Shown: one piece after another, positions 17,446-53,775 of the stretch | Layout: each line of letters starts with the position of its first letter | Position numbering within the stretch: position 1 is the first letter of the stretch | DNA from: Lytechinus pictus | Taxonomy: Eukaryota | DNA: 64,000 bases | Direction: 5' to 3' | NCBI RefSeq assembly: GCF_037042905.1 | Contig: NC_087250.1 | Coordinates: 26,476,001 to 26,540,000 of the forward strand | Program-made: the position numbers and the translations under genes | Notes under the pieces: model-generated | Databases searched by the model: none | What the model was told of the DNA's origin: nothing | The model's input: only the letters and a program-made list of their open reading frames with translations

Positions 17446-17799
17446 TTAAAACATGAATGACTCTGTTGTATGTTATACAAGTACAAATATAATAGGTGGT
17501 GGGATGGTGCTATGTGGTGCTTTTTTTTTAAGAAAGACACAAGTTCGATATTCTAATGTATAATGGACATATCCCCCCCCCAAAAAAAAAAAAAGAATAA
17601 AATGGAATTCCTCGATCAGTTGACAGTAGTCACAGGTTTTCGGAAAAAAACTGAATGTCAAGCCTACTTTAATTGTTCTGTGCATTAAGAGACATTGCTG
17701 TCAAGACTAGCCGTTTGACAAGGCCTCGCGACTTGGCCCCTTTCCTCGTCAAGCGGTGGCTGAGACGAGACTAGCGGCAGACGACGAAAATTGGCGATA

Positions 17800-17848
17800 T
17801 TAGTAGTAGCTGTAGTAGTAATAGTAATAGTAGTAGTAGTAGTAGTAA

Positions 17849-17902
<54 letters not shown>

Positions 17903-18004
17903 AAGTAGTAGTAGTAGTAGTAGTAGAAATAGTAGTAGTAGTAGTGGTAGTAGTAGTAGTAGTAGTAGTAATAGTACTGGTAAAAATTATTATTAGTAGT
18001 AGCT

Positions 18005-18058
<54 letters not shown>

Positions 18059-18222
18059 ATAGTAGTAGTAGTGTAGTAGTAGTAGTAGTAATAATAGCAG
18101 TAGTAGTAGTAGTAGTAGTAGTAGTAATAATAGCAGTAGTAGTAGTAGTAGTAGTAGTAATAGTAGTATAGTAGTATTAGTAGTTGTAGTAGTAGTAGTA
18201 GAAGTAGTAGTAGTAGTATGTG

Positions 18223-18271
<49 letters not shown>

Positions 18272-18309
18272 GAGTAGTAGTAGTAGAAGTAGTAGTAGTA
18301 GTAGTAGGA

Positions 18310-18345
<36 letters not shown>

Positions 18346-18346
18346 T

Positions 18347-18400
<54 letters not shown>

Positions 18401-18401
18401 C

Positions 18402-18442
<41 letters not shown>

Positions 18443-18444
18443 CG

Positions 18445-18517
<73 letters not shown>

Positions 18518-18518
18518 T

Positions 18519-18581
<63 letters not shown>

Positions 18582-18582
18582 T

Positions 18583-18627
<45 letters not shown>

Positions 18628-18658
18628 CTAGTAGTAGTAGTATTAGTAGTAGTAGTAG

Positions 18659-18720
<62 letters not shown>

Positions 18721-18747
18721 TGTAGAAGTAGTAGTAGTAGTAGTTAT

Positions 18748-18794
<47 letters not shown>

Positions 18795-18870
18795 ATAGTA
18801 GTAGTAGTGTAGTAGTAGTAGTAGTAATAATAGCAGTAGTAGTAGTAGTAGTAGTAGTAGTAATAATAGC

Positions 18871-18901
<31 letters not shown>

Positions 18902-18986
18902 ATAGTAGTATAGTAGTATTAGTAGTTGTAGTAGTAGTAGTAGAAGTAGTTGTAGTAGTATGTAGTAGTGGTAGTAGTAGTAGTAC

Positions 18987-19037
<51 letters not shown>

Positions 19038-19075
19038 GAGTAGTAGTAGTAGAAGTAGTAGTAGTAGTAGTAGGA

Positions 19076-19108
<33 letters not shown>

Positions 19109-19112
19109 TTAT

Positions 19113-19210
<98 letters not shown>

Positions 19211-19220
19211 GGTATAGTAG
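17800..19220. repeat. (GTA)n microsatellite, ~1.4 kb
   Basis: Direct inspection; explains the poly-V and poly-S ORFs. Confidence 0.98.
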
Positions 19221-19874
19221 TGTTGTTGCACTGCTAAAACACTGGTGTTACATCCGGTATATCACAAAAAACCAGGCATGTGTTGAAAGAACGGCAGATA
19301 ATAATCCAACCTATATTGTCTTAACACTGACATGTGTTGCTGAAATGCATATCCTGGTGTTACCCTAACGCCAGTCCGGTGTTGTTTCAACACCTGTAAT
19401 GTGTTTCCCGATGTACATATCGAGCTCGTATTAAATTAACACCAATGTTTTTTTGCAGTATGCCCATTGTGACTAATGTTGACATTATTCCTGCTGATTT
19501 AATCATAAAAAAATGATTGATAACAATTATAAAAGTTTGCAAACCATCGTCCTCAAAATACTCTGATACTTGCATTATTCCTTTTATTGTAATGATTTGT
19601 TTTCAATCTATCTCTCTCTCTCTCTCTCTCTCTTTCTTGGACTTACTTGTAATTATGTTATGACAATGATTAGGCTTATAATATTCATTTTACACGTACT
19701 AATATGATTTATTTTGTTATGGATATGGGATTAATTTATACAAACAGTTATTTTATTATTTGACCCCTTCGACATATATTTTTAACTGTAGAAATAAAAT
19801 TGAATTGAATAATCTTTCAAATAAGGTAATATCAATATTATCAATTTTCTTTGTAGATATAGAAGGGCGGGAAG

Positions 19875-20015
19875 ATGGCAAGTACTTTTAAGCTAACGCA
19901 GATGCAACTTTACAAAGTAGCAGAGCAGATCAACCCAGACGACTGGCTGAGCCTTGGGATTCGTCTTGGTTTCGTGTATAGTCAAATCCTGCACTGGAAA
20001 GAAGAATATAAAGGG
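19875..20015 (+). CDS. Gene A exon 1: N-terminal half of a death domain (MASTFKLTQMQLYKVAEQINPDDWLSLGIRLGFVYSQILHWKEEYKG)
   Basis: Acceptor ttctttgtag just upstream, ATG at 19875, donor GT at 20016 (phase 0). The pattern L..VA..I...DW..LG..LG....QI is typical of death-domain helices 1-3. Confidence 0.8.
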
Positions 20016-21680: not shown

Positions 21681-22988
21681 GTGGTGTTCCGTAAAACCTA
21701 CGCTATTCTTCTTCACCATGGAAACCTTCAGGAGTTACATGAAGTAAATGAATTATCATTATAATCAAAAGGAAGAGTGACAGCCTTATCCACATTTTTA
21801 TACCCAACCTTGCTGAATCCAAGGGGAACTTTACCCTGACGAAAAGTTCGTTGTATGAATAGCCCTAAAATAATTAAATAGCTGTTGAAGATTTGAGGAA
21901 AATTCGCCAAAGGTTAAATAAAAATATGTTATTTTTGAATTTGTTACGTTATATACATGCACGAGAAGCTGGCCCATCGGTTATGCAATAAAACATGCGT
22001 AATTTTTTTTTCTTTTAGACTACTTCCATGATCGGATGTAAGCTAATTTGTTTATCAATATGCTGAAGGTACAATAAAAAATTATTAAATTTTTACCATA
22101 TGAAACGAATGAAAGCTGCTCGCATATGACGTAAAAAAAAACCCTTAAGTTTTATTATTTGATTGATTTACCTCAAACCTTCACCAATACGTCTTTGAAT
22201 GAATGTTTTCTGTTATTTTTGCAATAAACTTTTTGTCAGGGTGACCTTTAAAGTGGTAAATGCAACATTTAGAAAAAAAGGTTTGTCACTCCGATCTTTT
22301 AACTGTTAATTTAATATATCAATGTTCAGTGTGTACTATACAGCGTTCCCTTGTATAATTTGTTCAATACAGAATATAAAACCATGCTAATGTTCCTGGC
22401 CGACCTCCAATCCCCACCCCCTCCCCAACTCTGACTGTCTATCTCTCTTTTTCTTTTTGTCAAGTTGGGATCCTATGAAAGAGAAGCCACTTTCGTCAAT
22501 GCCCAATTAAGCCAACACCTTCTATTGACTGCTTCTACTGAAGTGGAAGGAGGGGGGGGGGGTTCTCCCTCTGTCTTTTGGGGCAATTAGGGAATATTCG
22601 CTCACCTACGTGCGAATGATTCAAGAACAGAGTAAATCCTTTAAATGCCCGTGCAATTACAAAAAGCTGGGGGTCTTTGTCGAAAATTAGTAAATCGGAA
22701 CAGCAGTTTCGTGTTAAGTGTCAGAGCTGACGAAAATTTGCAAATATGTAGTACGTTTTGAATAGAGGTCTGAACTGCTGTGTTGATTCACCAATTTTTG
22801 ACAAAGACTTCTATGTTGTTCTTCGTCATGACTGGCATTCGACATCTGTAAGCCGCTAAGACAAAATTCATTGTCAGCTTCCCTCTCAAAAAGGGCCAAT
22901 ATAGGACTCCCTTCTATCAACAACGCCTATCATCAATGATGACATTTATTCAATTTCTCACTCCCACACCCATAATAAAACTCGAAAG

Positions 22989-23133
22989 GATATCAAGAAT
23001 GGGATTTTCAATATGCTGCTCACCTGGCTTGACATGTATCCCAACTATACCCAGCCGGACGCAAGGAAGTTCTTGATAGACCAATTCAAAGAAATGGAAC
23101 GGATGGATCTGGCGCACTTGCTTACCAAAACAG
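22989..23133 (+). CDS. Gene A exon 2: C-terminal half of death domain 1 (DIKNGIFNMLLTWLDMYPNYTQPDARKFLIDQFKEMERMDLAHLLTKT)
   Basis: AG at 22987-88, donor GTAAGA at 23134. Joins exon 1 in frame. ML..W and L...F..MER.DLA are death-domain helix 4-6 signatures. Not present in the supplied ORF track. Confidence 0.8.
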
Positions 23134-24108
23134 GTAAGATAAATGTTCACCCTGATTAAAGAGATGTTTTAATAATACGCATAAACATAAATAATACTAT
23201 TATGATGGCATAAGAAAAATCCATTAGATAATGAGAAAGAGGAATTAGCACATATCTGAATTTGTGATGACATCCTTAAATTCTTGTTTTATAAGGTTCA
23301 CGATGACTGGACTGATTTGTTTCGGATATAAAATGGCGTTTCTGATGACTTTATATCTCACATAAATAAAATCATTCTCATTTCTTAAGTAAATGACATG
23401 AAAAACGAATGACCGATTTGAATGAAGATAACTCTGTATAAAACACATTGCTCAAATATTTTTTTTCACAATTTTTCTTCAAATTTTAGAAGTCGGTTTC
23501 GTACCACCCCATAAAGTTGCAGTCATTGGTTCATCGAGACAATTCGAGTACGAGGTCAGGACTTATCAGCAAGAAAAGGGTACGTTTTCCAACTTGGTTT
23601 TGGTTTAATGGGGGGGGGGCACTCATGTATATAATGTCAGTTTGTGTACACTCTAGAAAAATATTGGGTAAAAGTGATCCATAGTGGTAATTTTGTGTCC
23701 AACCAACATTCAGCATTTCTTTTGGGCATTTTTATTTATCCAGTGTGATGAAAATTTTGCCCATTCTAAAGTAATTGCTGCTTATTTTTAACCTTACCGG
23801 ACAATACGTTTCCCGCAATGGGTAAAATACTGTCCCAAATTGGTTGGACAAATAAATACCCTCGTGGTGGTAATTTTTTTACAGTGTATATGCGGCCCCA
23901 AGCCCCCTTTTACACGCATCTCCCGTTTTCACTAACCAACTGGTTCGAAGACCCCAGTTTATATCACATAAGGAAGTACCAGTTCTTAGTGTTGCCAACA
24001 GTGTGACATCGCTGCCTGATCGCAGTCCACGTCGTTCGTGCTATGGTACTAAATGGTACAATACAAAATTTGACATTAAACATCTCTCATGAACACTTTC
24101 TTTCCCAG

Positions 24109-24498
24109 AACTTTCATTCAGGGTGTCCATGCATTCGAGCGAGGGACAGGTACCGCTCTCTCTGATCTTAGACTGCCTGACCGAACCTAACGAGTTTGCC
24201 ATCAGGCTGTGTACATGCATCCATATACTCGGACTAAGACTCATCCGGATGCAACTACCCGACGATGGAACCGGAAGTAGTATGAAGGTCACGGTCGCTG
24301 CGATTGATGAAGATGTCGTTCTTGAGTTGCAGAAGAGGGTGAAGTCATTACCGAATCACTTTGCAGATGACCTGAAGGATGTCATTTGCAAACATATTGC
24401 CGATGGTATGGAGAGGTCAACAATTTCTCTGAAAACCTGGTTCTCTGAGAAGGACGAGAAGGACATTGGACAGATCATCGAAGACTTTCGAAAAGAAG
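24109..24498 (+). CDS. Gene A exon 3: ~130-aa alpha/beta domain, possibly TRADD-N-like
   Basis: Acceptor tttcccag, donor GTATGC, phase 1-1, open frame matching ORF 24123-24527. Confidence 0.75.
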
Positions 24499-32435: not shown

Positions 32436-32596
32436 TTTACACTTTGTCGCACCATATGGTATAAGGCCGGGGCATTAGGTTGAGGCGCTATTGGCACTTT
32501 GGTATGGCGCCACCTCTAACAGACGACCACGACCCACACATGTCACCTGGCGGATTGCTTATATGAATATTCATTAACTGTTTTTTCTTCTTGCAG

Positions 32597-32707
32597 TAAA
32601 CACAAGACCATCTGATGCTAAGCCTTTGCGTGTCAATGACCTAGAACTGGTGAGACTCGCAAAAAAACTAGATGCCTCGTTGGTAATGGAGCTCGGGTTA
32701 AAATTAG
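32597..32707 (+). CDS. Gene A exon 4: start of death domain 2 (VNTRPSDAKPLRVNDLELVRLAKKLDASLVMELGLKLG)
   Basis: Acceptor ttcttcttgcag, donor GTGAGT, phase 1-1. L..LA..L......LG..LG motif. Confidence 0.8.
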
Positions 32708-32819
32708 GTGAGTTTGGAAACATTCACCGTGTTTAGTGGTCATTATGTCATTGAATTTATGATGGTGGTGGGGGAGGAGATAAAGCTGGTAATGATCATG
32801 GAGCTATAGCTCCATGGTA

Positions 32820-33080: not shown

Positions 33081-33271
33081 ATTATCTTGCCTCCGTCTGG
33101 AACAAATATCTATCTAGTCTGGGAACCATACAACTTTCAAAAATAAAACAAAGAACAATGATTACAGACCGATGATCCAACGTGCCGATGATTCAAAACG
33201 AATTCCTTATTTGAGTACGTATGTGAGATGTCTTTGACCTGAATTGATTAGTTTTATTTTATGTTTGTCAG

Positions 33272-33472
33272 GCATGTCGGACGCCGAGATCAATAACCTT
33301 CGAGCCATGTCAAGCAGATCAAAGTTCGAGCATATACTGTTTAGTTGGAAATCGAAGCACAGTCCGTGTATGAACGACCTTCCTGATTTGGCTAAGATTT
33401 TGGAGTCGCTTGGTGCCAGTCGTCTCGCTTCGAAACTAAAGAAAGGGGAGCTGAGGGAAAACGAGAAAGAGG
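33272..33472 (+). CDS. Gene A exon 5: rest of death domain 2 (MSDAEINNL...ILFSWKSK...LAKILESLGASRLASKL)
   Basis: Acceptor tgtttgtcag, donor GTAAGA, phase 1-1, death-domain motifs. Confidence 0.8.
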
Positions 33473-33816
33473 GTAAGATATTTTTATGTTTAAGTTCCTA
33501 TTTTATATTGTAGATTTGCCCTTCAAACACAGTCATGGTGACAGTCTGCAATTTGCCAGTCTCTCAGTTCTAGCTATGAATATGTATATTCAAAAGTAAA
33601 CGAATGTTTACATTTCTTCATCAGGAGGATTCGCGAAACGAAAATGTGTTACATTTTGTACTCCGATATCATGAAATATTATAAATCGCAAATTGTCCCT
33701 TTTCACTTATCATTTCGTTGCCTGCTAAACCGATCTTCCTGTAATAGTCTATTTCTCATGAAATATACGAAAACTCTGCGAAATCAGTTTTGTCTTTATA
33801 TGTTTTATTTCTGAAG

Positions 33817-34185
33817 AACAAAGAAGAACGTACCTTCAGCGGGTGTCTGCTCACTCTTCAATGATTGGCGCCATGAAGTCCCTTAGATTAAATCGTCCAA
33901 GTATCAATCAAGTCCCAGCTTCAGGTGAAGCTTCTGGTGCGGGAAACTCACAGTGCCACAAATACGTGAACTACCCACTTGAGGACACCCAAGAAAATAA
34001 ATTTGGACAACACACGTACGTTAACACTACAGGTTTGCAGGATGAAGGGCGCCCTCCCCAAGGGCAAGACACTGCTGATTCTGGCACCAACGAACCCGAC
34101 TACGAAAGCATCATCTTTCGCACTGAAGATGCGAAGCCAACGGAGAGACAACAGGCTAATAAAGCAGCTGAAGCGAATCCTGATT
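33817..34185 (+). CDS. Gene A exon 6: low-complexity linker with tyrosine motifs (YVNY, YVNT, YESI)
   Basis: Acceptor tttctgaag, donor GTAAGT, phase 1-1, in frame with ORF 33843. Confidence 0.75.
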
Positions 34186-34709
34186 GTAAGTCTTATCTGT
34201 GTGTTGGTCGGGTAATATTGAAATACTGTTCTACAAAGCAAATAAGAATCAATAAAGGAAGATGTATTTACGTCCACTTGTCCCTCAAGAAGAAAAAAAA
34301 AGAAGAAGGGAAGATACGTGTAGAAAGATAGAGAGAGAGAAAGCCATATTTTTTTTTTTTTGGGTGGCTGGATGGGTTGGATACGAAGGCACACTTTATC
34401 GACTTGTACCGAAAACGGTGGGTAGAATCTCGTTGATGCAATAATCATCGACCTAAATGTGCGCATTGGCAGTAAAAGTGCAATGTTAGGATTTGGTTAA
34501 CTGAGTACCGATCTAAATTTTAATATGGTTACTATCACACAGTGTCAATTTGTCAGTCCTAAACATGTTGGACGCTTTCGTCAAACGATGACCAAGTACG
34601 ATATTCTTGACTTGATTCGACCTTTCAGCTTTCCTGTTTTGATGCAAAGAACGAATTCATCTTTTAGTATATGATATAGACATATATTTATGTTTGTTTG
34701 TTTATCTAG

Positions 34710-34793
34710 ACGAAATGATTAAGGATGCAAACGGAGGAGAGACGCAAACTGATCAAGATGAAAATTATCATACTTATGTACAACTAAGAGAAC
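34710..34793 (+). CDS. Gene A exon 7 (YEMIKDANGGETQTDQDENYHTYVQLRE)
   Basis: Acceptor tttatctag, donor GTGAGT, phase 1-1. Splicing creates PDYEMI, which echoes PDYESI in exon 6. Confidence 0.7.
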
Positions 34794-35106: not shown

Positions 35107-35172
35107 CCGGCATTCGGAAAGGCGGTGAAATGAGAACCTCTCATAAGCGACTGGGAACATCTGCGATACCAG
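35107..35172 (+). CDS. Gene A exon 8 (PGIRKGGEMRTSHKRLGTSAIP)
   Basis: Acceptor attttatag, donor GTAGAT, 66 nt, phase 1-1, open frame. Short exon, so less certain. Confidence 0.5.
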
Positions 35173-35990: not shown

Positions 35991-36139
35991 TTAACGATAG
36001 TTATTTAAACAGTGAGCAAAGATGTGATCCAGTGACTATCTAAACCCATTTGTAAAGCGGTTACACGTAAAGTTATTTATTTCAAATATTTAGAAAGAAT
36101 TCAGCTTGATTTTTTCCACATACTTTTTATCCTTTCTAG

Positions 36140-36301
36140 TTATTGACAGCATGGACTTTTCCATTCTTGAACCAATGTGGAACAAGCTAGCTGTTTTCGG
36201 CGTTACTATCAATGACACGATGCACATAGCAGGCTTGGTGAAGCTAGCAAACGCTCTCGATCGTATAAGTGAACATGACATTGCGGATACCGTATGGATA
36301 T
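36140..36301 (+). CDS. Gene A exon 9: partial (C-terminal) death-domain-like segment (...GLVKLANALDRISEHDIADTVWI)
   Basis: Acceptor cctttctag, donor GTGAGT, phase 1-1. L..AL..I...DIA resembles death-domain helices 5-6. Confidence 0.7.
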
Positions 36302-37404
36302 GTGAGTTTGTTTGTGCAGAGTAAGAATGTCGTTTGAATTTGTGAACCTGACAATGGTTTTTAAGCGGTTTAACCCTTTCTAGGCCGGGGTATTTCGGGA
36401 GTTCATTTGGCCGGGGGGCTCCCAGCCCCCCCCCCCCCCCCTTGAGATCTCGGTCGCCAAGGACTGCGCGATCGCGCCGAAAATTGGCACGCTAGTCATG
36501 CTAGTTGTCTAGGACATAATCTACAAAATTGTATACTAAATTGTTTTATGCAAATTGCTATTAAGTGATCATGCTCATTTATGCGTAATTAGTATGCGAA
36601 ATCATACTGTTTCCTCCAATTCCATATGAAAGCCCAAAATGTTATAAATTTTGGTTGAGAGACTCTTTGTGGTGTTTTTAGCAAGTGTACATGAAAAAAA
36701 TAAGTGATATCAGATCAATTTCTTATGCATACAAAGTGAATAGAGTTGAGAGCGTTCTATATAATTTTAGACAACTTGTTTTATTTTATACCCAGTGTTA
36801 CAATATGAGCTCGTTTTCTTATATTGCTATTTACCAACTCTACTCCAGTTCATCATCGAATCATAATCGGGCAATTGTTCCTCAATGGCCTTTTGTTTTA
36901 CCATGTATATTATGCACAATTTAATACAACTCGTTCATCGTTCGCCGTCTCCTCGCAGGTTGACCACTATAGTTTCGTATCCATCTTGTAGCCGTAGTCT
37001 GTTCTACAGACTTTACAAAGTACAGTACATACCCGTCACATCCAGTCGTTGTATCACATTGCCTTGGTGGAACATACTGCATTAAAAAGATACTCTCATG
37101 ATGTGGGAATACACTTAATTAGTCAATTATTATCACGATTAAGTAATGCTACATACATTGAATAATTATTCATTTATTTATCTAACTATTTTTTTTCCCC
37201 GCCCTTTTATTTTCAGAAAAAAATCTAGCTCCATTTTCCTACCCTTTTATTTTCATAAAGAATTCTAGCTCCAATCGCTCCAAAATGTTGATGAATCTAC
37301 CTTCCAAGCAGTTCCCAATTTACATTTTGTCTCTGGTAATCGTACGGTATCCGGTGGGGGTCGTATCATGTTAATCGTACGATCTCCCGAGTCCTGAGGG
37401 TGCT

Positions 37405-37632
37405 ATTATTATTATTATTATTATTTTTTTTTTTTAATTATTTTTTTTTTTAAACAAGTGCACACCTAGTTACCAATAATGCATAAAGCATTTCCATTTA
37501 TTTGAAAGCAGGATAAAAGAGCATTGTTGATTAAATGCCTTGCTCACGGGCATAGGCGCCGCGGCCGGGGATCGAACCCCGGACTTTCCATGTAAAGCCA
37601 GGCGCCTTAGACCACTCGGCCACGGCACCTCC
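37405..37632 (-). mobile_element. tRNA-derived SINE, second family
   Basis: Minus strand GGAGGTGCCGTGGCCGAGTGGTCTAAGGCG...GGTTCGATCCCC...GAGCAAGGCATTTA, with an A/AAT-rich tail. Confidence 0.8.
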
Positions 37633-37924
37633 GCTATACGACAACCCTACGATTACCAACGGATAAATGATGATTGCAGGGTCAACGGTAATGTTTAGTG
37701 CGAAGTTATATGAAGGCTTTGTGTGGCAATAGTTGTGTGACAATGAATGAAGTCGAGGTTAACCAAACCTTCGATGCTAATGCACTATTTCCATTTCTGC
37801 CAAGACATGGTATCGATCTTTTGGTCTAATGTTTCCAAATCAATTTTAATAAGTACAAAATAAAACTAATGCACGGAACCGGAATATAATCCATTATTTT
37901 TCATTTTTCCTCCTTTTCATCCAG

Positions 37925-38562
37925 CGCTGATAAGTGAGAACATGAAAAACGAATACCTGCATAAATTTGATACCGGAAGTATAAATGTTGTTCCACGGGT
38001 CATCACGAATAGACAAGACTTTGACATGGGACAATGGACAACTCTTGAAGAGGTCATTAATCGCACAAAGGCTCTCGAGTATCCCAGTCGCATTTTCATC
38101 GAGGCCAACGAACCACTTGACCGGCAAATGGTGGCGGAGAAGCTCGGCTACGATTGGGCCATAGAGAAGGATCCGAAGAGTCCGTTGGGGAACGTTGATT
38201 TGCTTTACGTCCTGAACGTTGCAGACATCGCTCCTGGGTCAACCGTTGGGGGCGCTGTAGTATCTCAACGCGTGTGTAAGGAATTCAAGCTGACTCAATC
38301 TCGAATTGAAGATTATTTCAAGAGCACCATGACAGAATATGTCATAGTCTTAAGGGGAGATGAAGATGATTTTCGGAAACTATTATCAGTCTCCCCATCT
38401 GCTGAGCGTAAATCTGGATTCAGAGATCTAATCAACGGAAGCTATCTAAAGGATTGTATTGTGATAATGACAATAGGTCCCCATGCGCTTTCGGACGCTC
38501 CTAAAAGCTTTGCATATTACAAACTTCTGCAAACCCCATACTCAGCAACGTCGGATTGCTAA
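37925..38562 (+). CDS. Gene A terminal exon: degenerate, truncated NACHT-like (STAND NTPase) domain
   Basis: Long polypyrimidine acceptor ending ccag, in frame to the stop at 38562. RIFIEANEPLDRQMVAEKLGYDWA, DLLYVLNV, VIVLRGDED and LINGSYLKDCIVIMTIGP occur in NACHT motif order (Walker A region, strand 2, Walker B, sensor-1). Confidence 0.8.
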
Positions 38563-41496
38563 AGAATATATTTGGGTTTCTTCACATGCAATGTTGTCCC
38601 CATTGAAATAATTCAATATATTATAAGGTATGTGGTATCTTTACTCTTACCATGGACCTTACTATGAGTCCATGCTCTTACTGTAACGGTAGCAGAATAA
38701 TCTCAGGAGGGCTTCTGCGAGAAAATGTGACTACTTAAATAAGTTTTTATTGGCACAGTTGATAGCAATGTCATTGCGATGTTATTGTTATGCTGCCACC
38801 CCCGTGTGTTTTGTTTTAAATTTATTTATTCTATGATATAGAAATGTAGTATATTGGTCGTTGGAAAGCGGAGGAATTGATCCCTTCTCTAACATCAAAA
38901 CCTTTCCAATTTATTAAATGAAATCCACAAAATGCTGCCAAAGGTATAAATAATCCGTGTAATTATGTTCCAATGTATTCGAAATAATCGTTTTCTTAGA
39001 TGCACGGTCCACCGTTCACCAAAGTGAATCAAGTAAAACCGTTAGTTGTATCATTATGGTAATGATAATTCTATAGAAAATTGTGCAGAGAAGGATACAA
39101 TAATTGCTTTACTGATGATTATAATAACATTGCTAATAATAATAAGAAGAATTATAATTATAGGAAATGTTGAAATAAATTAGACACCTAAATTCTTGCC
39201 CATTATTTCATTATTTTTATTGTATTTTTTCCTTGCATCAATTGGTAAATGTTTATATTAGTTTTGATCTGTTTATATTTTTATGTATATATACCTTTAT
39301 GCTAATGTGGCTTTGTTTGATCGTAAAAACCCGATATTCATAAATCATTATTTTGTGTCTGAAATCTCATTCATCTAGCAGGGTTTTTTTTCCTTCATTT
39401 TTTTTAGAGGCATCATGACAATCATTATAGTTATTATGTATAGTTCAATATTTTCTTTGATGGGTTTATGCTTGCCATGCTTAATGGAAACTAAACAATA
39501 TGAATATGATCTGGGGCCCGTATAACACAAAGCTTAGCAATGATCGCATAACATTTTTCTACGATTGGTTCCATTGAATACAATGTACAATCAGCCGTGA
39601 AAATCGAAAGTACAATTAATCGCTAACCTTCGTGTTAAGGGATCCTGCGAGTGTTTTCTCAAAAAATTAAGTATGACTTAAAATCGCACTTAAATGCCGA
39701 CGCGTATATGATATGCAACACGCAATCTTATTGCAAGCAACTAAGCATTTAAGTGCGACTCTGATGCATACTTAAATCTTTGTGAAACACCCCCTGTTCA
39801 TATACATGTATGTAGGTAGATGATGCATTGAACTATTTGTAAGTTTATACGAACGACGTTACTAACGACCTTTTGAACATTAACACCGATCGTAATGTGG
39901 GTGGCGTTTCATGAAAGGACCTGTCAGACGTTTTATCCGAGAATGGACTGTTTTATCCGACAGTTTATGGTAACACTGCATCTCAGCCAATCATAATCAA
40001 GGAAAGTTGTCAGACCAGGGGCCCTTTGCAGAATGAGTTAAGATCAAACGCAACTATGTCATCAAACCAGTTCTAACTAATACATGAAAGTTTAAACAAG
40101 TCTTCTCACTAAAGCATGGTACATTTAGTATCATTCAGGAATGAAAGTTGTTTTGTGCCTTTGACGTTAATATCAAATTATTTTTATACATTTATATGAA
40201 GTAGTATGTATGCTGCATAATGCTTATTAAAATCTTTGTAGTATTTTCATTTTCATATGATATCTCGATTTTTATTGGTTTGTATATTGGTATTTTGTCT
40301 CTCTATCTACCTTTCCCTCCTCGACTCCCCCTCCCTCTCTTCCCCTTTTCTGCCCATCCCCCCCCCCCCCTCAGACTATCGCTATTGCTCTCTTTCTCTA
40401 TACACAATTGCCCGTTAATATAAACACCTATGAATGATAACTATGTTATAAGTAATGAATAGTCTGGAGAGTTACAAGAACATCATTCTAATATAGGGTT
40501 AGTATGGCGCCGTATCCATCTCCCGCTTAAGGGTATGTCAAGATGTAATTAAAGATGCTACGAAAACTATGCATGGGGAGGTGGAACTAAAGTGGTATGG
40601 GGTGCAGATCTTGGGGAGGTGGAGCTAACGGTTGGAAAAAAAATCAGCTGTTGAAAGCAGAAAAAGGGGTACAAAATTCGTTTTGCTTGCCAGTGTTGGT
40701 ATTCCTATGCCTCAGCGGGAGGGTGCATGCGAGCCCATTGCACTCCCCCGCCCGCCAGCCAACGCCCTTGAAAAATAATAAATGGGAACCTTATTTGTCT
40801 CTTTGGGCATGGATTTACTTTATTACATTCCTTTTATTTTTCTTTAGAGCTAGTGCATTGTCAATGCATTGGGATCATTTGATGTTCTTCATTTTGATAA
40901 AAACTTATCAGGTGACTTCATTGGAAATATCTTGCCGTCAATTCATCAAATATGTTAAACATATATCCAGATCCTGTCATGAAGCTTTGCATCCCATTTA
41001 GTGCAATTTGACGAATGCCCGCTTTCGATTCCGGCAATCTTCCCTCGCAAATGGGCTAGAACAGTAGAACGAGACTTCATCAGTCACTCCCGTTCTCGAT
41101 ATCATATCCTTTGTGACATCATCACGTCCATTGACGTCATAGTGCCTGTTTACGTCATAAGTGTGGAATATGATCTTGCTCAAGACGTTTAGATGAAGGC
41201 TGGGTGACCGGGGAAGTAAGAGAGCAGATTTTTTTTTTGCCACTTTCGATGACATTAAAGGGGTAGATCACCGTGATAGCAAGTTTATTTTGCTCACGTC
41301 AGAAATCCTAGAAAAGCATTATTTAACGAAGGTTTGGGGAAAAAGCATCAGAGAGTAAGAACGTTAATTATTGTTTAGTGTTTGAATTAAGTAGCGTCAA
41401 ATGTGAACCATTGCCCCCACATGCCATGCAATATCAAATCATATATCCCTATCCATTGATTGATGACGAGGTTTTTGCTCTCTTCCTCCCCCTCTG

Positions 41497-52297: not shown

Positions 52298-52575
52298 TTA
52301 GTTCGATTTAAAAAATAAAACATTATAGATATTGAACAGTAGACGTCTAAGACATACCTCTTAATTATTCATTAAAAAAAATCCGCTTAATGAGTTCCAT
52401 TTTCTTCCTATTTTCCTTTGCTCCGACTATTCTTTTTAAATCACAGTGACGGGTAAAGTAAATGTGGCTAATGTACAAGCCTCTCTTCTTTCATGCGCCA
52501 CGTCTGACCTGTCGAGCACTTTATCATAGAGTGCGTAATATTATTTGATTTTTTTTCTTTCCTTTTTTTAAACAG

Positions 52576-53775
52576 GCAAGTCGAGCAAAACAAGAAGCAG
52601 ATGATGCCATCAGAAAGATTTCGAAGGAAAGGGATCGCCACATCCGAGAAATCCACCAAAAGACCGAACAGAAGGAAAAACTGATTCGAGAACGAAAAGG
52701 GTCTTTGCTTGCCGAAATCAGCAGACTACGGGAAAGCTTCGAGAACACGATGAAAGAGAGACGCGGTCGCATTGAAGCACAGGTAAAGATGCGGTCAGGA
52801 GCTAAGGCCAGCCTTACAGCGGTCGAAGAAACCGAACCATGCGACACTCTGCAGAACGTCGCCAAGGATAGTCTTGATACGGTGCGCCTCGTCACAGCCT
52901 CGTGCAGGAAGATCAAATTCACCCGACAACAAAATGACTCGGAAGATCTCGTGGGGACACTCAATGGAGTACAACACTCGTGGGAGTTGCAGCGTAATAT
53001 CCCAATACCCACAAACATATCTTACCCAGAACTCCTTGCAAAAACCAAAGGCAACAGCGGTGTAATCATGACGAACGAGGTTAGATCCGGGCTCTTTGAA
53101 ATAAATACCGATACCGAACAAGCGCGCACGATCATTGCGGACGCGCAGTTCGATATTTGTGACTGTGCATGCGCGTACAATGACACACTCGTTGTAAGTG
53201 ACTACAATAGTAAGACTATTCATATTTATGATTTGACTGGTGCATCGGTGAAATCAATAGGCATCCCGTCGGCCCGCGCTAGGGTAGCCGTGACAAAGGA
53301 TGGCTTGGTGTTGGTCGGAGATGAACTCAACGGGAAAATCTATTTCCTGAATCCCAGGAACGGGAAAATCATCCGAACCTTACCCATCGACGGGAAGAAA
53401 ATTAATGGAATATATTATATGAGCCGTGGCTGGATCGTAATACAAACCGGCATTACGGTAATCAGTGTATATGATGATTTAGGAGTCCTCAGGGAGACGA
53501 TTCAGGACAGTACGTGGAGTGAGCTGCGATGCGCAGTGAGTCGTGACGTCATCTACATCATGTATAAAAAACAAGATGACCCAATCACGTACGTCGGAAT
53601 GCGTTCTCCAAATTCAGGTCGCATCGAGGTGATCGTCCGATGCAAGATATCGAGGTTCCTGCTATCGGAATTCATTGTGACGTCCTCTGGAAATATCGCC
53701 ATCAACGGTGATAATGAGATATTGGTATTTAACCAAGCACCGGGGTACGAAGCTGTTTTGAAGAGGTTAAAGTAG
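52576..53775 (+). CDS. Gene B terminal exon: coiled coil plus NHL-like beta-propeller (TRIM-like family)
   Basis: Acceptor ttttttaaacag, 399-codon open frame plus stop. Heptad-rich K/E/R region, then KIKF...DLVGTL linker, then NHL-like blades (LVVSDYNSKTIHIYDLTG; VAVTKDGLVLVGD..NGKIYFLN). Confidence 0.85.
   Translation, partial: ASRAKQEADDAIRKISKERDRHIREIHQKTEQKEKLIRERKGSLLAEISRLRESFENTMKERRGRIEAQVKMRSGAKASLTAVEETEPCDTLQNVAKDSLDTVRLVTASCRKIKFTRQQNDSEDLVGTLNGVQHSWELQRNIPIPTNISYPELLAKTKGNSGVIMTNEVRSGLFEINTDTEQARTIIADAQFDICDCACAYNDTLVVSDYNSKTIHIYDLTGASVKSIGIPSARARVAVTKDGLVLVGDELNGKIYFLNPRNGKIIRTLPIDGKKINGIYYMSRGWIVIQTGITVISVYDDLGVLRETIQDSTWSELRCAVSRDVIYIMYKKQDDPITYVGMRSPNSGRIEVIVRCKISRFLLSEFIVTSSGNIAINGDNEILVFNQAPGYEAVLKRLK

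Follow-up and report, generated by a model that had tools for sequence, protein, structure and literature searches.

A motif-less NACHT-derived domain at the C terminus of a two-Death-domain protein of the sea urchin Lytechinus pictus

The 64,000-nucleotide stretch of Lytechinus pictus contig NC_087250.1 analyzed here (the window) contains the gene LOC129263955, and positions 37925-38562 on the + strand are exactly its terminal coding exon. The product of this exon is genuinely homologous to the NACHT nucleotide-binding domain (NBD), keeps none of the three nucleotide-handling motifs and closes a protein with two Death domains upstream. The domain has orthologues with the same losses in two other sea urchins, and the exon is transcribed and spliced. 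Our best explanation, to which we give a rough probability of 0.55, is that a NACHT-derived NBD has been turned into a non-enzymatic module that would serve a Death-domain adaptor or regulator as a constitutive surface for docking or scaffolding.

Homology to NACHT and loss of the nucleotide-handling motifs

A phmmer search of the 206-residue open reading frame (ORF) of the exon against 1.84 billion proteins returned 31 matches at E ≤ 1e-3 (best E 3e-8). Two of these belong to the gene itself: P0001, the 722-residue isoform X3 of LOC129263955 ("uncharacterized protein", L. pictus), whose residues 517-722 are the terminal-exon ORF at 100% identity (exhaustive phmmer), and P0002, a Strongylocentrotus purpuratus copy of the same gene. 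GxxGxGK[ST] is present in 28 of the 29 others, and all 11 of those relatives that were scanned against Pfam matched NACHT (E 1e-15 to 1e-48). Within L. pictus, a six-frame search of the 812-Mb assembly gave 18 further matches (L002-L019) at 24-31% identity, lying in open frames of 535-1422 codons; all 18 carry a canonical P-loop in our alignment A2, and the whole frames of L002, L003, L004 and L006 are canonical NACHT exons with G..G.GK[ST], DG.DEF and VT[ST][RH]. At the level of profiles, hhalign of an orthologue-only profile against a canonical-only profile (20 sequences) gave 99.2% and E 1.4e-19 over 154 columns, and a hidden Markov model (HMM) of the motif-less orthologues matched 20 of 20 canonical sequences with E values between 5e-15 and 8e-6 at Z=1e6. 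By language-model features, the clusters nearest to residues 512-722 are NACHT clusters (0.92 and 0.90).

AlphaFold2 (AF2), supplied with a 29-row alignment (A3), gave a model with a predicted local distance difference test score (pLDDT) of 79.9 and a predicted template modeling score (pTM) of 0.81, made up of a five-stranded sheet (residues 55-59, 92-97, 138-143, 178-182 and 194-200) and flanking helices. The top Foldseek matches are NAIP5, NOD2, NLRC4 and NLRP3 (E 2e-7 to 1e-5, TM about 0.6 on the query), and VIA-align scored the model at Z 13-15.6 against the same four proteins, with Z 15.6 to NLRC4 (4kxf residues 107-310; root mean square deviation 3.1, 186 residues aligned). The top 42 VIA-align entries are all NLR NACHT domains, followed by ORC/Cdc6 proteins and plant NLRs at Z 8.3-9.5. 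The predicted structure is a three-layer alpha/beta NBD fold with a parallel sheet, nearest to NLR structures, in which the five-stranded alpha/beta core and the conserved ..YDWA.. helix are retained. An earlier reading made from the DNA letters (the sequence-only reading) had called the exon NACHT-like and had asked for structure prediction as a check; profile-profile alignment, the paralogue and database matches and the structure comparison all agree on this identity, and the model does match the NACHT fold of NLRs.

The same reading had described Walker A, Walker B and sensor-1 as erased. In a MAFFT alignment with 20 canonical NACHT sequences (A2) the query can be matched to them column by column and keeps none of the three motifs, and all the strings quoted earlier, VIVLRGDED and VIMTIGP among them, are present and lie where they had been placed. 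The equivalent positions, all from the alignments and the motif tally, are the following.

38101-38127 (+): loop EANEPLDRQ at the Walker A position, GK[ST] replaced by DRQ (alignments A2 and A4)
38341-38373 (+): strand VIVLRGDEDDF at the Walker B position
38461-38484 (+): strand VIMTIGPH at the sensor-1 position, without Arg

The loop, contained in RIFIEANEPLDRQMVAEKLGYDWA, has lost all P-loop glycines, with Lys replaced by Arg and Ser/Thr by Gln, and holds three acidic residues. Among the canonical rows, Walker A in the form [AG]x4GK[ST] is kept in 20 of 20 (in the strict form GxxGxGK[ST] in 9 of 20), Walker B DGxDE in 18 of 20 (the exceptions are L007 with EGYDE and L009 with DGFGG) and sensor-1 [TS][TSC]R also in 18 of 20 (the exceptions are L002 with TSH and L009 with TSQ). 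Some of these rows deviate in one motif, and none deviates in all three. We note that L009 (DGFGG, TSQ) and L002 (TSH) are otherwise canonical paralogues with one or more eroded motifs, so that partial degeneration is found elsewhere in the family.

The domain is also cut short. It ends at the closing strand of the NBD ('..h.h.GFS'/'..EGFS'), where canonical proteins continue into the first helical domain (HD1) and the query adds QTPYSATSDC and then stops, 25 residues past VIMTIGPH. The sequence-only reading, which had put the stop about 25 residues after sensor-1 and before HD1 and the winged-helix domain (WHD), was accurate here: the stop lies 26 residues past the VIMTIGP that it quoted, the canonical alignment ends at the NBD border, and there is no downstream relic. 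A tblastn search of the 64-kb window with 17 full-length canonical NACHT proteins recovered the terminal exon alone (E 4e-14 to 1e-8), with no other match at an E value under 0.25, and the window downstream of the exon holds no remnant of HD1, WHD or repeats. RNA contigs and reads pass colinearly through the stop into the 3' untranslated region (UTR), and the SATSDC C terminus is common to all orthologues. The truncation is old and clean. With Walker A, Walker B, sensor-1 and HD1/WHD all missing, four features that define the STAND NTPases, the domain does not belong to that group and would function in the manner of a pseudoenzyme module.

Conservation, selection and transcription

Orthologues are encoded in Lytechinus variegatus (LOC121416911; P0033, 793 aa) and S. 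purpuratus (LOC100890170; P0034, 792 aa), with exon identities to L. pictus of 85% and 70%, respectively (70-71% over the S. purpuratus loci). Both have the same frame, stop, length and motif loss, with no stops or frameshifts, and a search for G....GK[ST] in the full length of eight orthologue and isoform proteins found it in none of the eight. At the Walker A position the residues E, A, D, R and Q are invariant across orthologues and the middle four residues are variable (EANEPLDRQ in Lytechinus, EAGRYEDRQ or EAGLHEDRQ in S. purpuratus). The first Asp of Walker B is replaced by Arg, Lys or Asn (VIVL[R/K/N]GD[E/D][D/N]D across orthologues, VIVL[K/N]GDDDDF in S. purpuratus), and sensor-1 reads VIMT[I/V]GP[H/Q] (VIMTVGPQ in S. 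purpuratus). Stretches that are invariant in all orthologues comprise the E-A...D-R-Q flanks of the P-loop, MVAEKLGYDWA, SPLGNVD and RIEDYF.

At least three S. purpuratus loci carry the motif-less domain (LOC100890170, LOC115927302 and LOC115927316), and the 140-aa fragment P0002 falls in a 90% cluster with the last of these. As a separate observation, the gene is multi-copy in S. purpuratus (P0034, P0041, P0035 and P0044), the copies being the three loci above and LOC115927654, which spans the N-terminal part only; copies there vary in the P-loop remnant (GRYE versus GLHE) and at the Walker B position (Lys versus Asn). Searches for further orthologues with the last exon and with the first 360 residues of P0033 retrieved proteins of L. 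pictus, L. variegatus and S. purpuratus only, in databases that may lack other echinoderm proteomes.

Overall, frame and fold have been held by purifying selection in camarodont sea urchins for some 40 million years, at a moderate strength that is normal for immune-type genes. The separation of L. pictus from S. purpuratus by about 40 million years is stated in a passage of PMC11688612, and across this distance the NBD is the best-conserved segment of the protein, at 72% identity (77% in its first half) versus 58% for the first Death domain, 60% for a middle domain, 65% for the second Death domain and 42% for a linker. In six sequences, 23% of the columns in predicted strands, 31% of those in helices and 47% of those in coil are variable (strand plus helix versus coil, Fisher p=0.004), and 5 of 29 columns are variable in the sheet strands versus 72 of 182 elsewhere (p=0.022). 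Over the exon, contigs of relative B (the source of contig set X5) differ at 55 of 602 and at 64 of 633 bases, with no gap letters, and its 3' UTR pieces of 314, 249 and 389 bases have 26, 27 and 35 differences with 28, 4 and 9 gap letters. Under simulation, 98 unconstrained substitutions, the minimum matching the L. pictus-S. purpuratus protein distance, left the frame open in 4.75% of runs, and the real neutral distance between these species surely exceeds 98 substitutions. Setting the minimum of 36 non-synonymous changes between the two Lytechinus species against the 55-64 total differences to relative B would put omega at roughly 0.3-0.5, a figure that assumes a B protein like P0033 and is a rough split rather than a proper estimate.

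The sequence-only reading had inferred a selected pseudo-ATPase and had proposed that an orthologue alignment be checked for shared motif loss. The loss is present in all orthologues, none of which has an intact GKT or a broken frame, and a selected pseudo-ATPase domain is well supported by the shared frame, stop and motif loss, by its position as the slowest-evolving part of the protein, by structured substitutions and by its transcription and splicing.

The evidence that the terminal exon is transcribed and spliced comes from raw reads of a stranded RNA run (X19, of which about 6% was read) and from contigs (X1, X5 and X10). X19 depth is 2.7-5.3 over 37812-39096 and confined to one strand; first mates map to the minus strand, which in the usual library type means RNA of the + strand. 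Depth is 0 over 36784-37297, within the intron upstream of the exon, and the intron bins flanking that interval have high depth on both strands, from dispersed repeats. In the 3' UTR the one-strand depth is 2.4-5.3 up to 39096 and 0.14 in the following bin. An X1 contig of 1155 bases (record 7) has its first base at 37925 and matches the window as far as 39050 without a single difference, and X1 records 7 and 8 are colinear to 39198. The GT..AG joint 34185>34710 occurs in contigs of X1, X5 and X10, and the GT..AG joints 34793>35107 and 35170>36138 are present in 2 and 3 X19 reads, respectively, in addition to contigs. Record 17 of X5 matches exon 7 and the last exon, its intervening 312 letters being equal to the summed length of exons 8-10, and three GT..AG joints over exons 7-10 are each found in one X5 contig of the same depth as record 17. 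The direct joint 34793>37925 of isoform X3 does not occur among the joints listed.

Gene structure, protein architecture and surrounding sequence

Exons were placed by tblastn of segments of P0001 and of P0032, the second isoform (668 aa), against the window, and some borders are approximate. All features listed lie on the + strand.

19875-20015 (+): exon 1, start codon and N-terminal part of Death domain 1 (tblastn P0001 aa 1-47, 100%)
22986-23132 (+), 5' border approximate: exon 2, remainder of Death domain 1 (tblastn P0001 aa 40-95, matching 22965-23132)
23489-23578 (+), 5' border approximate: exon 3 (tblastn P0032 aa 96-125, 100%)
24108-24497 (+): exon 4, middle domain, P0001 aa 126-255, no Pfam family (tblastn 100%)
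32596-32709 (+), border approximate: exon 5, start of Death domain 2 (tblastn P0032 aa 126-163, 100%)
33271-33471 (+): exon 6, core of Death domain 2 (tblastn 100%)
33813-34185 (+): exon 7, linker rich in Tyr motifs, poorly conserved (tblastn 100%; RNA joint)
34710-34793 (+): exon 8, linker (joints 34185>34710 and 34793>35107; tblastn)
35107-35170 (+): exon 9, in the long isoform and missing from isoform X3, P0001 (joints 34793>35107 and 35170>36138; isoform alignment)
36138-36303 (+): exon 10, small helical segment, long isoform only (joint 35170>36138; tblastn P0032 aa 403-457)
37925-38562 (+): terminal exon, pre-NBD segment, degenerate NACHT NBD and stop (homology, fold model, RNA)
38563-39198 (+): 3' UTR with AATAAA at 39174-39179 (RNA depth, colinear X1 contigs)

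Position 37925 follows a splice acceptor, since AG at 37923-37924 is preceded by a pyrimidine tract. Bases 37925-37926 finish a split codon, read as Pro in P0001 and as Ser in P0032 by the database gene models, and the in-frame translation begins at 37927 rather than 37925. The open frame 37927-38559 (+) comprises 211 residues ending in ...SATSDC, with the TAA stop at 38560-38562; from stop to stop the frame runs over 37870-38562, or 230 codons. The 212-codon open frame of the sequence-only reading is real (211 residues, or 212 with the stop or the split codon counted), but the frame is no stand-alone protein: it is the last exon of a protein of 668-793 aa. The reading had missed this and the two Death domains upstream, and this gene context, together with the position of the domain in the last exon, makes an adaptor or scaffold with a docking domain a likelier mechanism than a free cap.

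The protein consists of a Death domain, a middle domain of ~150 aa that belongs to no family, a second Death domain, a Tyr-rich linker, an optional helical segment and the NACHT-derived domain. Pfam Death (PF00531) scores above threshold in P0001 (51.6 bits, E 1e-13, two stretches, the best at aa 275-350) and at 47.7-50 bits in P0032, P0033 and P0034, with two stretches in each; on the exon 1 ORF taken alone the Death match is weak. At E ≤ 0.1 no Pfam family other than Death is found in P0001, which ends after the NBD and has no C-terminal repeat sensor domain, and at E ≤ 1 the other three proteins add only two sub-threshold, chance-level matches (RasGEF_N and GcpE). Exon 4 is omitted in isoform P0032, as the isoform alignment indicates. 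Own-genome searches with exon 4 and with exon 6 return only these exons themselves, and the Death-Death-NBD gene, judged from these two other exons, is single-copy in L. pictus.

Some features of the remaining segments deserve mention. The middle domain (24108-24497), which reaches the threshold of no Pfam family, has identities of 94% with L. variegatus and 60% with S. purpuratus. Its best Atlas look-alike, at 0.76, is a cluster in which 92% of members have Death and 34% have UPA, a score that is below the counting level and serves as a lead only. The linker (33813-34793, P0001 aa 359-510) contains the repeated Tyr motifs YVNY, YVNT, DYESI, DYEMI and HTYVQL, several of which recur in S. purpuratus (RYVNYP, PDYARVI, PLYERI, HTYVN) despite an overall linker identity of 42%; these may be phosphotyrosine docking sites. 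From exons 9 and 10 (35107-35170 and 36138-36303) the long isoform gains a conserved helical stretch, ..DFSILE..GVT..AGLVKLA..DIAD..WI, which both orthologues have as well.

The window has a G+C content of about 31-45% and sparse ORFs. Just upstream of the terminal exon, at 37456-37632, lies a tRNA-like stretch with the T-arm-like sequence GGGGATCGAACCCCGG (+ strand), very high depth in all four runs and many diverged copies; ARAGORN and Rfam called nothing in the window, this stretch included, and it is probably a tRNA-derived short interspersed element. Dispersed repeats at 36270-36783, 39354-40124 and 40382-40895 flank the last exon and the UTR, with contig depths of hundreds to tens of thousands in both species and many loose ends. 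Low-complexity DNA of trinucleotide type (period 3, AGT-like) fills about 1.5 kb at 17685-19247, and GC skew reaches +0.56 in the 18-20 kb bin, just upstream of exon 1. A 408-codon frame at 52549-53775 (+), with a coiled-coil segment followed by a beta-propeller-like region (Pfam propeller matches are weak, E 0.006-0.01), is probably a large exon of a separate neighboring gene.

Proposed function and relation to known systems

Acidic and bulky residues occupy the phosphate-loop, Walker B Asp and sensor-1 Arg positions, and we infer that the domain can neither bind nor hydrolyze ATP canonically and so would not act as a STAND switch. Since the fold and invariant surface stretches are kept, it would fit a constitutive interaction surface. 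We hypothesize that the pseudo-NBD serves as such a docking or scaffold surface, tethering the two Death domains to partners that would most plausibly be the NBDs of canonical NACHT receptors of the same lineage, and that the Death domains provide a signaling output or compete for it. The protein would then be an adaptor or regulator of NLR-type Death-fold signaling, by recruiting, capping or competing, and not a sensor. A bolder version, speculative and in our view improbable, is that the nucleotide-independent NBD with its two Death domains forms a dedicated hub for the expanded urchin NACHT repertoire, plugging into the open NBD face of activated receptors and capping the oligomer or handing it to Death-domain signaling.

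Several points weigh against the docking-module reading. Against the Pfam NACHT profile (PF05729) the exon ORF reaches 12.5 bits where 26.7 are needed (E 0.13; aa 64-191 matching profile positions 16-141 of 167), and Pfam scans find no NACHT at E ≤ 1 in P0032-P0034 or at E ≤ 0.1 in P0001 and P0002. The single-sequence AF2 model (pLDDT 43.6) is unusable, and the A3 alignment contains canonical NACHT paralogues, which biases the better model toward the NACHT fold and makes it not independent of homology. L. pictus and L. variegatus differ at 31 of 211 residues, by a minimum of 36 non-synonymous changes, pointing to only moderate constraint, and within the NBD the first half is the slower-evolving one (93% identity to L. 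variegatus, versus 75% in the second half). Simulation of 64 random substitutions, the difference count in one relative B contig, gave ~42 differing residues and an open frame in 11% of runs, a comparison that presumes the B protein to resemble P0033. Coding divergence to relative B, at 9-10%, is close to the 3' UTR mismatch of about 9-11% of aligned bases. Sampling covers three species in two families, the loss of ATP handling is argued from sequence, and the docking role, drawn from architecture, is less certain than the loss.

A more modest account, which we think unlikely, is that the domain is a passenger, a folded remnant that only stabilizes or solubilizes the C terminus or carries a short C-terminal signal while the Death domains do all the work. 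Conservation concentrated in core strands and helices is what fold maintenance would produce, and the moderate constraint between the two Lytechinus species and the conserved SATSDC tail would fit as well. Stability alone, though, would not require the invariant loop and surface stretches (the E, A ... D, R, Q flanks and SPLGNVD), nor does a passenger role sit easily with an NBD that is more conserved than either Death domain over ~40 million years.

The sequence-only reading had suggested a possible dominant-negative or capping subunit for NLR oligomers. On this account the dead NBD would enter growing NLR oligomers and terminate them, by analogy with truncated plant helper NLRs that compete with full-length paralogues. 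Structures of NLRC4/NAIP disks provide the basis for supposing that an NBD-only module offers one oligomerization face without propagation, and a module lacking HD1 and WHD could act in this way among the many canonical NACHT paralogues of the same fold in the genome. The nearest paralogue is only 31% identical, however, which leaves no obvious cognate partner, and two Death domains with a Tyr-rich linker suggest a signaling output and not mere blockade. The precedent for inhibition of full-length NLRs by a truncated one, NRG1C, cuts both ways, as passages of PMC12177489 describe inhibition by sequestering EDS1-SAG101, through the WHD-LRR and not by capping of an NBD ring. We regard this cap as unlikely.

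Should the domain not be dead after all, it might bind a nucleotide or another phosphorylated ligand non-canonically, for example via the invariant Arg of DRQ, and sense without hydrolysis. The Asp-Arg-Gln at the GK[ST] position is invariant in orthologues while the preceding four residues vary, and a passage of a review (PMC7583971) raises the possibility that certain NLRs are pseudoenzymes that do not hydrolyze ATP and yet still bind it, as binders without turnover. We nevertheless consider this very unlikely, given that all P-loop glycines are lost, the Lytechinus loop holds three acidic residues (E, E, D), the Walker B Asp has become Arg, Lys or Asn, the sensor-1 Arg is missing and the protein lacks the HD1 and WHD that in NLR structures shut the pocket.

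A decaying pseudo-exon or annotation artefact with a frame open by chance is already largely refuted and has very little probability left. Sea-urchin NLR families are large and full of fragments, the Pfam NACHT score is below threshold, and for the Lytechinus pair alone a chance open frame arises in 11-21% of simulations; against this stand the same frame, stop and motif states in three species and in at least three S. purpuratus loci, indels that are absent from the coding sequence and present in the UTR, structured substitutions in the most conserved segment, and spliced, strand-specific transcription. A barnase-like ribonuclease domain, suggested by the sole PDB sequence matches of the single sequence (phmmer, ~22 residues, E 1.3-1.6, with a second collinear stretch at -2.3 bits), is rejected, as these E values are at chance level and the region aligns end to end with NACHT NBDs and its model matches NLR structures at Z 13-15.6.

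Sea urchins have one of the largest known NACHT/NLR repertoires, and to our knowledge signaling by these receptors is essentially uncharted. A conserved, expressed, single-copy protein in which two Death domains are linked to a version of the receptors' own oligomerization domain that has no switch is a candidate adaptor or regulator, and L. pictus has been developed as a laboratory model, which makes the candidate testable in the same species. In the open-access papers searched, we found none on this gene, with no mention of LOC100890170, and none on a motif-less, NBD-only NACHT derivative in animals. If the domain were only a structural passenger, the case would be one of ordinary domain decay inside a Death-domain gene.

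The canonical sea-urchin and invertebrate NACHT/NLR proteins (L002-L019 and P0003-P0031) share with the domain the strand order, the pre-NBD segment, the YDWA helix and the SPL motif, at 17-33% identity. They differ in having Walker A, Walker B, sensor-1, HD1, WHD, HD2 and repeats, all of which are missing here, and in belonging to an expanded family, whereas the urchin domain lies C-terminal behind two Death domains in a single-copy, conserved protein. Among more distant P-loop proteins, the clamp-loader delta/delta' and some ORC subunits are ATPase-dead AAA+-type proteins that keep the fold without the nucleotide motifs and end or shape an oligomer. The urchin domain resembles them in its P-loop fold without motifs, and ORC/Cdc6 chains are its next structural neighbors after the NLRs (Z 8.5-9.5); such subunits keep a lid domain and sit in defined rings, and the urchin domain has no lid. 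In death-fold signaling, CARD-only and PYD-only decoys are regulators of a related kind.

By analogy, the nearest precedents are truncated plant NLRs such as NRG1C and dead paralogues in death-fold signaling. Arabidopsis NRG1C, as portrayed in parts of two sources (PMC12177489; bioRxiv 10.1101/2021.01.27.428547), is likewise a retained NLR fragment that cannot oligomerize as a switch and acts on the pathway of its full-length relatives. According to passages of the first of these (PMC12177489), it keeps the WHD-LRR after loss of most of the NB domain, whereas the urchin protein keeps only the NBD. The plant NB-ARC lineage is also a different one. The pseudo-caspase FLIP(L), in an excerpt of PMC7586951, is comparable as a dead paralogue of a signaling enzyme kept as an interaction module in death-fold pathways. 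FLIP(L) and the CARD-only and PYD-only decoys have a caspase or death fold and known heterodimer partners, and the urchin domain is a P-loop NBD. Among animals it would stand as a clear case of a STAND-type NBD converted to a pseudoenzyme module and, if the hub version holds, an animal counterpart of the truncated plant NLR regulators, in a class of pseudo-ATPase adaptors that is undescribed for animal NLRs.

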